From Escherichia coli (GTDB lineage Bacteria > Pseudomonadota > Gammaproteobacteria > Enterobacterales > Enterobacteriaceae), in NCBI RefSeq assembly GCF_009931435.1, contig NZ_CP043414.1: a stretch of 64,000 nucleotides of DNA. One strand, 5' to 3'. The position numbers are program-made. Shown piece by piece: positions 42,501-45,500 of the stretch. Position 1 is the stretch's first letter. Each line of letters opens with the position of its first letter.

Positions 42501-45500
42501 TTGAAAGTGTCACTGGCGGCACTTACTGCGCCGTTTTCTTCCGCGTTACGTCAGGGATTACAGGCAAGTGAAACTGTGCTGTTGCGCTACAACTGGCCGG
42601 GAAATATTCGTGAACTGCGCAATATGATGGAACGACTGGCGCTATTTTTAAGTGTGGAACCGACGCCGGATTTAACGCCGCAATTTTTGCAGTTGCTACT
42701 GCCGGAACTGGCGCGCGAGTCGGCGGAAACTCCCGGTCCATGCTTACTGACGCCACAACAGGCACTGGAGAAATTTAATGGCGATAAAACAGCCGCGGCG
42801 AATTATTTAGGTATCAGCCGAACGACATTCTGGCGGCGGCTGAAAAACTGAAATGCCGAATCCAGCGCGAACGCCTTATCCGGCATAAATTTCAATAGAT
42901 GATCACCGATAAACTTACGCATCGGGCATGTTTACATGGGGTGCAGAATTATTTCTTCTTATAAATATTTGCCGTGCCGTGGATCTTATTGTCAGTTTGA
43001 CCAGAGGTCAGCACCAACACATCTGCCCCTTTTTCATCCGCTTTTTTGATCAGATCTTCTTTCGCATCTGCAGTCGACATTTCATTACTGGTTGAAATAT
43101 CACCTATTTTTTCATATTGCGATGCAACTTTTTCAAATTCTGCTTTGGTCATTAATTCTGCGGCATAAACGTTGGTAACGGCAAACGCTAACGCACCGAT
43201 TAACATTTTAGAGATTATTTTCATATTACGGCTCCAGAGTTGTTATCAAACTATCACCCACCCATATTATTGGGTTGATTAATAATTAGTTCAGTCAGGG
43301 CATAAACGCCAGTAACCGGAAATAAGACACTTTGTGATCTCTCTCGCATCCGATTACTTTTTGTAGAAATATGATGAAGTTACTTCACTTATTTATGGAT
43401 GAAATCACATGGATCCCTTGCACGCCGTTTACCTGACCGTAGGACTGTTCGTGATGACTTTTTTTAATCCGGGAGCCAATCTTTTTGTGGTGGTACAAAC
43501 CAGCCTGGCTTCCGGTCGACGCGCAGGAGTGCTGACCGGGTTGGGCGTGGCACTGGGCGATGCGTTTTATTCCGGGTTGGGTTTGTATGGTCTTGCGACA
43601 CTCATTACGCAGTGTGAGGAGATTTTTTCGCTTATTAGAATCGTCGGCGGCGCTTATCTCTTATGGTTTGCGTGGTGCAGCATGCGCCGCCAGTCAACAC
43701 CGCAAATAAGCACACTACAACAACCGATTAGCGCCCCCTGGTATGTCTTTTTTCGCCGTGGATTAATTACCGATCTCTCTAATCCACAGACCGTTTTATT
43801 TTTTATCAGTATTTTCTCAGTAACGTTAAATGCTGAAACACCAACTTGGGCACGTTTAATGGCCTGGGCGGGAATTGTGTTCGCATCAATTATCTGGCGA
43901 GTCTTTCTTAGTCAGGCGTTTTCTTTGCCCGCTGTGCGTCGTGCTTATGGGCGTATGCAACGCGTTGCCAGTCGGGTTATTGGTGCAATTATTGGTGTAT
44001 TCGCGCTACGCCTGATTTACGAAGGAGTAACGCAGCGGTGAGCAGATAATTTACTCTCTACGTAATCAACCTGATTTGCCGAATCCCGCTCATCGGCGAT
44101 GATACCCCCCGTAATGCGTGGTCCTTATTTCCGATAAGTTTACTTGAGTCTTTAGCTTCCCATTTCAGCCCACTCTCCCCTGTGTGGGCTTTTTTCATTT
44201 GTCTGCTTCAGTGAGTAGCTGGCAATGCTCCATCCACTCTGCAAGGATGATAATAAGAGGATCTGATTCAGAAGAGTTTTGAAAAATTGGACCGCCATCG
44301 AGGCCTCGAACCCCGTACCATACAACAATCCTGGTTGTCGTCTGCTCTTCCTGATGAGCTAATGGCGGTTTGTGATATGAGCCTTACAGCATATTGTCTG
44401 TCAGGCTTGAGTGCGATGCGTAAGATACAGAAAAGACCCCACACAAACATGATGGAATTATGATTTTTTTCATATGAATGTCAACCAACACATTCATAAA
44501 ACACTCGCACAAGTTCACTTTTTAAGCAACATGACGCCGATCACAACAAAATATCGGCGAAAAAGGAGGGTAAATGCCATTTGACGTAGAGATAAGCAGA
44601 TGAAATGATTACCCGCTTTGCGATTCACTCTCTGATGGAATAAGAAATTGGAGATGGAAAAGTTTCTAAACTAAAGAGTGTAGCGTATTTTAACGTGCTT
44701 ATTTACAGGATAATATTTGTCACCTAATTCCTGCACTCTATTAGATACCCATTGATTTAATCGTGCATCATCTCTGTATGTTTTTACGTTCAGAACGGAG
44801 AGCAATAACATCACTAGCGATTCAGGAAAAACAGGGTAAATATTTTTTAAGTGCAATAATAATTCATACGCAAGCGCCTGCTTAATAGGTGCGTCTGCGT
44901 CCGGAATGCGCGACATTTCGCGAAGCCATTTTTCTACATGCTCACATTCTTTCCCTTCACGGAAAAGTCTCAACAAAGGCATATGGTGCTCAAGAAGAAT
45001 GCATTTGCAATCTGTTCGTACTGAATCGATAAACTGCACTAATTTCTTAAGTCCGGTGAAGCGTCCGGCATGGATATTCTCTTTAATATCAAGAAACACG
45101 TCATCCTGATCATATACCCAAACGGTCCCTTTTTGATTTTCAAGTATCCGAAAAACAAACTTAATCGGGTAATCAGGGTAATCCACCCAGTCATAAACTC
45201 CAGGGAAATCATTAAACTGCACATTTATGGTAAGCGCATTGTCGGCTGCCCACTCGCAATCTCGTACGGCAGCCATGAGATAAATGAGTTTATCATCATC
45301 GACTAAATCATCACGACAATCATAAGGATAATCATAGTATTGTTTAATCAAAACCTTGAATATATCGACACAAGAAACCAGTGTACTTCTGATATCTTCA
45401 GGTAACTGATTGTTTTTAAACGTATTGTGTACGCTTTGTTTCGTATATAGCAACAAATTATTGTGCGGCGCTTTTAATGGTATCATTGCGATCTCTCTTA

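Follow-up and report, generated by a model that had tools for sequence, protein, structure and literature searches.

The spacer between yahN and yahL in a 64,000-nt stretch of Escherichia coli DNA (assembly GCF_009931435.1, contig NZ_CP043414.1; hereafter the window) carries an 81-nt element that reads as a tRNA-like cloverleaf (44288–44368, minus strand). A sigma-70-type promoter and an 82-nt 5' leader (44369–44450) with two predicted hairpins (~44449–44412 and ~44407–44380) precede it, and at its 3' end it runs into yahM, a small reading frame annotated in K-12. All features described are on the minus strand unless stated otherwise. A sequence-only reading of this DNA had offered three candidates for the cloverleaf: a decayed tRNA gene, a tRNA-like RNA, or the scar of an integrative element that targets tRNA genes. 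Our analysis leads us to conclude, with a probability of roughly 70%, that 44288–44368 is the core of a small non-coding RNA gene encoding a domesticated tRNA mimic with an inferred, non-decoding function.

Structure of the tRNA-like element

Read directly from the minus strand, the 81-mer has a 7-bp acceptor stem in which every position is paired (44368–44362 with 44298–44292). U8 and A9 precede a D-arm (44359–44344) that has a 4-bp stem and an 8-nt loop, with A14, G18G19, A20 and A21 present. Beyond the anticodon-type arm and a variable region (44321–44316), the T-arm (44315–44299) consists of a 5-bp stem, including one G·U pair, and the loop UUCGAGG. The 3' acceptor strand is followed by a discriminator U (44291) and by a CCA that is encoded in the genome (44290–44288). 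The body of the element agrees with that of canonical tRNAs in its 7-bp acceptor stem, the G18G19 of its D-arm, the U54-U55-C56 and G53-C61 of its T-arm, and the 3' CCA. The cloverleaf is the minimum-free-energy fold of the 81-mer alone and also of the whole 168-nt transcript. ARAGORN places a tRNA, labelled tRNA-Ser(gga), precisely at 44288–44368, and made a single call in 9.6 Mb of shuffled control sequence (150 dinucleotide shuffles of the window), so chance is a poor explanation of the match. Direct reading, ARAGORN and folding therefore confirm the near-canonical tRNA frame described in the sequence-only reading, and together with the conservation and argN-type phage homology presented below they define the element.

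The anticodon-type arm (44341–44322) is where the molecule departs from a canonical tRNA. In the thermodynamically preferred register, a 2-nt linker (44343–44342) leads into a 7-bp stem, ACGACAA/UUGUUGU, closed by the 6-nt loop CCAGGA (44334–44329). An alternative register has a 5-nt linker, a 5-bp stem, and the 7-nt loop CAGGAUU. Both lack U33 and a purine at position 37, as the sequence-only reading had stated, but that reading described the alternative register rather than the one with minimum free energy. The combination expected of a canonical anticodon arm, with a 5-bp stem, a 7-nt loop carrying U33 and a purine at 37, and a single nucleotide 26, is not found in the 81-mer. The Rfam tmRNA and tRNA-like models do not match the element at their gathering thresholds or at E≤10, and an ARAGORN tmRNA search finds no tmRNA in the window.

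The ARAGORN label raises the possibility of a working decoding tRNA, such as tRNA-Ser(GGA), or of an unusual frameshifting tRNA. Serine tRNAs have a long variable arm. The element has no such arm, and it lacks U33 and purine 37, has an anticodon arm with either a 7-bp stem closed by a 6-nt loop or, in the other register, a 5-nt linker, and goes unmatched by the Rfam tRNA model. We therefore regard a decoding tRNA as very improbable, even with the ARAGORN call, the canonical body, the encoded CCA, and kinship with argN, a plausible tRNA-Arg of Stx phages discussed below, in its favor.

Promoter, transcript and the yahM reading frame

The promoter consists of a -35 hexamer TTGACA (44479–44484), invariant among Escherichia species, and a -10 hexamer CATAAT (44457–44462) separated by a 16-nt spacer, a near-consensus sigma-70 arrangement that scores 11/12 in a promoter scan. 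The -10 hexamer ends 6 nt before the RNA start, an A at 44450. RNA data came from three raw-read runs of K-12-like strains (X22, X23 and X24), with ~2–3% of each run read. The 5' ends of 286 X23 molecules lie at 44450, at a depth of 443. The reporter primer for a yahM fusion begins at the same base (Adams et al, 2021), and Reg-Seq confirmed the yahM promoter and reported its repression by IHF. Term-seq and Reg-Seq detected the transcript or its promoter independently, and the promoter is the same.

All three runs contain a discrete minus-strand RNA that extends from 44450 to ~44285 with little read-through into yahM. In X22 and X24 the depth is ~37–39 across leader and element, drops about tenfold within 30–40 nt downstream of the CCA, and is below 3 by ~40 nt beyond it. 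Reads with the K-12 variants at 44244 and 44258 do map, and the drop is therefore not a mapping artefact. Most molecules have their 3' ends at the CCA or a few bases beyond: in X23, 38 molecules end at 44287 and 16 at 44283, placing the mapped ends at CCA +1 to +5 (44283–44287), and adapter sequence is joined directly to the 3' ends of some molecules at both positions. The locus thus has its own promoter, a mapped 5' end, a defined though heterogeneous 3' end, and conservation that exceeds that of its flanks, as expected of an independent small-RNA gene.

Run X23 also contains ~30 reads from a ~38-nt 3' fragment, with a 5' adapter junction at 44324/44325 (element position 44/45) and a 3' junction at 44287. 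The 5' cut falls in the 3' strand of the anticodon stem, and the fragment resembles a tRNA half. We considered a leaderless mRNA from a 60-codon open reading frame (ORF) that starts at the transcription start (44450–44268) and rejected it, because in other Escherichia species the frame either has no ATG or is stopped at codon 4.

A different 3' end was mapped by Term-seq in MG1655, at 345390 on the plus strand with ~4300 reads, a Rho score of 1.85 ('Yes') and an intrinsic terminator score of 1.28 (Adams et al, 2021, supplementary files 1 and 3). It was classed as the end of a 5' untranslated region (UTR), in a Rho-termination region without an intrinsic terminator (Adams et al, 2021). Placed by means of the 61-nt sequence printed in that study, it corresponds to G57 of the element (44312).

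The K-12 yahM start codon is formed by the first three bases of the element's 3' acceptor strand. Only 11 nt of the element, comprising the 3' acceptor strand, discriminator and CCA, overlap the yahM coding sequence, and the remainder lies upstream. The sequence-only reading had equated the element with the site of K-12 yahM and noted that no intact ORF of 60 amino acids or more is present here. The ORF is broken here by a frameshift, and the element sits in front of yahM rather than within it. In K-12 the yahM ORF is intact and encodes 81 amino acids. In strain 2013C-4282, which is identical to the window, yahM is annotated as 'frameshifted', and in the window translation ends after 48 codons. 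In O157:H7 and one further Escherichia species the frame is closed by a stop at codon 12; other species lack yahM and have only unrelated short frames in its place. Neither YahM nor YahL matches a Pfam, PHROG or NCBIfam family. In the three K-12-like runs, where the ORF is intact, sense depth over the yahM body is ~0, having fallen below 3 within ~40 nt of the start codon. The reads that do cover the body are essentially only antisense and come from yahN, and a published survey described yahM and yahN as a convergent 'excludon'. Accordingly, yahM does not behave as a coding gene: the ORF is not conserved among relatives and the mRNA does not cover it. The call of Rho termination at the start of the ORF also fits an untranslated RNA. 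The yahM annotation is probably mistaken, and the frame is probably an accidental or very young one that begins in the 3' acceptor strand. We did not count the frameshifted remnant in the window (44058–44298; delimited by annotation, translation and RNA depth) as part of the functional unit. A yahN terminator hairpin lies antisense within it (44154–44197, plus strand), recognized from terminator-shaped partial Rfam matches and from the place where plus-strand reads stop. The sequence-only reading had named low covariance-model scores, together with conservation of the stretch as yahM coding sequence and absence of a transcript, as evidence against a tRNA-like RNA. The covariance scores are indeed below threshold, but conservation as yahM is not observed and a transcript exists.

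Because the element occupies the annotated yahM 5' UTR, it could be a cis-acting attenuator of yahM, or a 3' protective or processing structure for the 82-nt leader RNA as the real product. tRNA-like 3' modules define the end of an upstream RNA in eukaryotes, as in MALAT1/mascRNA. The Term-seq end, assigned to a 5' UTR and a Rho region, is compatible with such a role, as is the leader coverage in X23, which is 2–4 times deeper than that of the tRNA-like part. However, most lineages with the element have a broken yahM ORF or none, the element changes far more slowly than the leader, and phage and other-genus members of the family have unrelated leaders or none. We consider a cis-acting or leader-protecting role unlikely.

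Conservation and relatives of the element

The module of promoter, leader and element adjoins yahN in 9 of 13 Escherichia species genomes, and the 81-mer is identical in nine Escherichia species. In an alignment of eight sequences from seven of these species, none of the 81 columns of the element is variable, compared with 31 of 84 in the adjoining leader (Fisher p=3.5e-11); the ninth species with an identical 81-mer is outside this alignment. Variation in the leader consists mostly of G-C/G-U/A-U changes within its hairpins. The 81-mer is present in 5168 of 5426 complete E. coli genomes; of 5170 E. coli records, 4821 have it unchanged. A further 348 records fall in a band of 95–99% identity and, judging from four that were sampled, belong to the O157:H7 lineage. 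The one O157:H7-lineage record that was aligned has a single base change, which converts the G·U pair of the T-stem to G-C; this lineage variant is the only common polymorphism of the 81-mer in E. coli. A more distant Escherichia species has 5 differences in the element, all at unpaired positions. In other Escherichia species conservation stops at the limits of this module, and the neighboring genes are different ones. Two species have flanks unrelated to those of E. coli and no yahM body, with yahN ending 34 nt from the CCA. The contrast between 0/81 and 31/84 variable columns, along with changes that preserve stems, indicates a structured RNA under purifying selection rather than a coding sequence or a decaying relic.

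The lineage of the window is itself divergent around the element: the 371 nt from 44150 to 44520 are at least 99% identical in 18 of 5171 E. coli records and 90–95% identical in 5148, and a 40-bp segment found upstream of the promoter in K-12 is missing near 44520. In two Escherichia species a gene for an SNF2-family helicase-like protein replaces yahL directly upstream of the module (loci L007, 1790–3205, minus strand, and L008). The alternation of yahL and the SNF2-type gene marks the promoter-side DNA as a variable spot.

Such variability could be taken to suggest that the element is an attachment (att) site, or the scar proposed in the sequence-only reading, and some members of the family in other genera do lie beside tRNA-Gly or tRNA-Asn with P4-type integrases. 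Elements that target tRNA genes insert at the 3' end of the gene. Here the variable DNA is on the promoter side and not at the 3' end, and the element forms a full cloverleaf served by a promoter of its own, rather than a 3' fragment. Its 25-nt 3' part occurs once in the 64-kb window at up to 3 mismatches, and no integrase-sized ORF is nearby. We find an integration scar hardly credible.

Outside Escherichia the element has relatives but the locus does not. In a blastn search of 401 Enterobacteriaceae species genomes, the region as a whole was confined to Escherichia, and ~30 other genera gave matches to the 81-mer alone, at 77–87% identity. By tblastn, the synteny of yahN, yahL, yahO and yahK is likewise restricted to Escherichia, and the copies in other genera are elsewhere, either among ordinary chromosomal genes or next to tRNA-Gly/Thr/Asn and P4-type integrases. 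Some of these copies have a terminator directly after the CCA. The relatives have in common the acceptor stem, D-arm, T-arm and CCA, and their anticodon loops vary in sequence and from 4 to 12 nt in length; among orthologues within one genus, differences are confined to the loop. Across 23 family members, 98.6% of the stem positions are paired, and U7:A66 is replaced by C:G in 9 of the 23 sequences with no mismatch. A scan with a strict pattern detected family members in 7 of the 30 Enterobacteriaceae genomes covered, and the 371 genomes from 30 further families of the order had none.

Phage homologues were found by blastn at 74–84% identity, with E-values from 1e-5 to 1e-18. The nearest (84%) lies between ileZ and argO of the Stx2e phage phiP27 and carries no annotation. 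A copy in Yersinia phage YeP1 (79%) is annotated 'tRNA-Pseudo-TTG', and the annotated argN of Stx2 phages (74%) is a canonical tRNA-Arg(UCG) that scores 53.6 bits with Rfam. More than 120 IMG/VR viral contigs carry family members, which range from canonical Arg(UCG/UCU) to 73–75-nt forms with 5–6-nt loops. A covariance model of the family gives the window element 90.7 bits, with the element itself in the model seed, and the best genuine host tRNA, tRNA-Arg(UCU), 58.9 bits. No phage-genome match at E≤1 was obtained for the leader and promoter (44369–44500), and so only the 81-mer is phage-related. Judged by this homology, the element descends from the tRNA-Arg lineage of lambdoid phages to which argN of Stx phages also belongs. 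It shares the acceptor, D and T arms of that lineage and has kept A20, but it has no arginine anticodon (C35) in a canonical loop and does not reside in a lambdoid late region or tRNA array. No phage genes were found near it between yahN and yahL.

Across the family, selection has acted on the body and the anticodon stem and not on the loop, whose length and sequence are unconstrained. This pattern argues against decoding and for factors that read the shape of a tRNA. The element might instead be a relic, left by a dead prophage tRNA gene, that has no function and is transcribed by chance. The aberrant anticodon arm, the failure of the Rfam tRNA model, the phage-borne nature of the family, the free drift of anticodon loops across it, and the 258 E. 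coli genomes without the element could all be read in this way. Against it stand the invariance of the 81 columns beside a variable leader, a near-consensus promoter that does not change, and base changes that keep the stems. In addition, the module has been kept while both of its flanks were replaced, and other genera keep their own copies across several species. We judge a relic to be quite unlikely. The decayed tRNA gene of the sequence-only reading was right only in that decoding features have been lost; the rest of the molecule is not decaying.

Several other features of the family were noted. Upstream of a number of copies (L010–L013, L023, L024, L026, L028, L029 and L057), by ~60 nt, we saw by eye a motif TTGCAKGG followed after ~15 nt by TGTATTAT; a simple sigma-70 scan does not confirm this motif upstream of the L011 copy. 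Most copies, including that in the window, have CAAA immediately before position 1. The motif and the CAAA are possibly a common promoter and processing context, judging from the sequences. The 83–87-nt copies (L010, L026 and L057) contain tandem duplications in the anticodon arm, with GTTGT(A/G)G or AAACGAC repeated, which suggests that slippage may drive the variation in loop length. A Dcm site (CCWGG) in the loop was considered as a family feature and discarded, being present in only 7 of ~60 distinct sequences. The commonest viral member (L041, 1501–1577; 25 IMG/VR contigs) is a 77-nt Lys(UUU)-type tRNA with the loop CCUUUAA. It has C at the universal U33 and sits in prophage Met-Lys-Thr-Gly arrays. 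Matches to the STnc100 small-RNA family (L034, 4578–4789; L009, 2273–2484; L020, 2588–2792) lie from a few hundred bases to ~1.5 kb downstream of phage tRNA arrays, and the match in an Stx2 phage is just past stx2B. Within the window, the only Rfam matches at gathering level are twelve to naRNA4 (REP-element arrays), in four clusters (10784–10963, 12991–13269, 35032–35296 and 54703–55051).

Interpretation and known systems

Of the candidates in the sequence-only reading, the tRNA-like RNA is the one that phage tRNA homology, an own promoter, a transcript and purifying selection support. The sigma-70 promoter starts an RNA at 44450 that comprises the 82-nt leader and then the 81-nt tRNA-shaped domain. 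In the model that we propose, this RNA would fold into a tRNA-like L shape and be handled by tRNA enzymes. Its 3' end would be produced by Rho-dependent termination downstream, followed by exonucleolytic trimming to the CCA, and cleavage by RNase P at 44368/44369 is possible. The molecule could then work in trans, using its acceptor end and elbow, and serve as a decoy, competitor or carrier for some protein that reads the body of a tRNA and not its anticodon. Because the family is common to lambdoid phages and many enterobacterial chromosomes, a conflict between phage and host or between toxin and tRNA is our leading guess for the setting in which it may act.

Several observations weigh against a domesticated, non-decoding tRNA mimic. 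The 81-mer is unmatched by the Rfam tRNA model (RF00005; gathering threshold 29 bits) even at E≤10, on 351-nt and 91-nt stretches, so that of the covariance and tRNA searches suggested by the sequence-only reading ARAGORN was positive and the Rfam tRNA, tmRNA and tRNA-like models were negative. Covariation is thin, as the stems barely vary, and amounts to one fully covarying pair and a few one-sided changes. No abundant cluster of 5' ends, as RNase P cleavage would leave, was seen at 44368 in the three RNA runs, from standard libraries that lose 81-nt RNAs, and the bulk species keeps its leader. The runs themselves come from K-12-like strains and not from the lineage of the window, and only the small part of each mentioned above was read. 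The Term-seq 3' end at G57 is reproducible and lies inside the T-stem, with none listed at the CCA, and it implies that some molecules lack the 3' third of the cloverleaf. This end disagrees with the coverage in runs X22–X24 and could reflect an exonuclease that stalls on unfolded molecules, ~10 nt beyond the stable hairpin of the anticodon arm. The absence of the element from 258 of 5426 E. coli genomes shows that it is dispensable at least in some backgrounds. Finally, the role as decoy or mimic is one that we infer from anatomy and distribution.

A broader proposal, which we put forward as doubtful, is that Enterobacteriaceae and lambdoid phages share a class of tRNA-body mimics, not described before, that arose from phage tRNA-Arg and in which the L-shaped body is fixed and the loop is free or diversified. 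Its members might act in phage-host conflict, either as decoys or antidotes for tRNA-attacking nucleases or transferases, or as carriers of aminoacyl groups outside the ribosome, and the Escherichia copy would be a domesticated host version that is present in K-12.

If the element is such a mimic, E. coli K-12 holds an unrecognized structured RNA gene, conserved across the genus, beneath a 'y-gene' protein annotation. The expression signals attributed to yahM in microarray, RNA-seq, Reg-Seq and Term-seq experiments would belong to the tRNA-like RNA, and yahM would need to be re-annotated. We found no description of the yahM-region element as tRNA-like in the open-access literature, and its likeness to a tRNA was not remarked on in the Term-seq (Adams et al, 2021) and Reg-Seq studies. 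The element ties a chromosomal RNA to the tRNA cluster that lies just upstream of the toxin genes of Stx phages, and it belongs to a large family of tRNA look-alikes, with conserved bodies and free loops, in phages and many enterobacterial chromosomes. A laboratory strain would offer a tractable model for the role of non-decoding tRNA mimics in bacteria.

The closest known counterpart is argN, which has the same acceptor stem (CCGCCAU/AUGGCGG), a D-arm with A20, the same T-stem, a UUCGAG T-loop, discriminator U and encoded CCA. In argN, however, the anticodon stem has 5 bp, the 7-nt loop contains U33, the anticodon UCG and A37, and the Rfam model is passed. argN is part of the ileZ-argN-argO cluster upstream of stx, in the late region of the phage, with the Q antiterminator to one side and stx to the other, whereas the window element is chromosomal and non-decoding, with its own promoter and an 82-nt leader. 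The phiP27 element matches the window element in its length of 81 nt, in the 'AG ACGAC' that leads into its anticodon arm and in its body, and similar 81–82-nt copies occur in IMG/VR contigs. The phiP27 element differs in having another, longer loop, is not called even by ARAGORN, and lies inside a phage tRNA array. Host tRNA-Arg(UCU) of the argU type has D-arm and anticodon-stem motifs in common with the window element, and differs in its G1-C72 acceptor, canonical anticodon loop, T-arm, and ability to decode.

Bacillus cereus tRNA-Other and mammalian mascRNA, the latter released by cleavage at the 3' end of a longer RNA, are tRNA-shaped RNAs with bodies that are recognized by tRNA enzymes and with no role in decoding. 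The window element has no sequence relationship with either and differs from them in the taxa in which it occurs, its phage tRNA-Arg origin, and its leader and promoter architecture. The tRNA-like domains of tmRNA and of bacterial Y RNA (YrlA) mimic the acceptor and T-arm, as the window element does. In contrast to these RNAs, the window element has no tag reading frame and no Ro-binding stem, and possesses a full D-arm and an anticodon-type arm.

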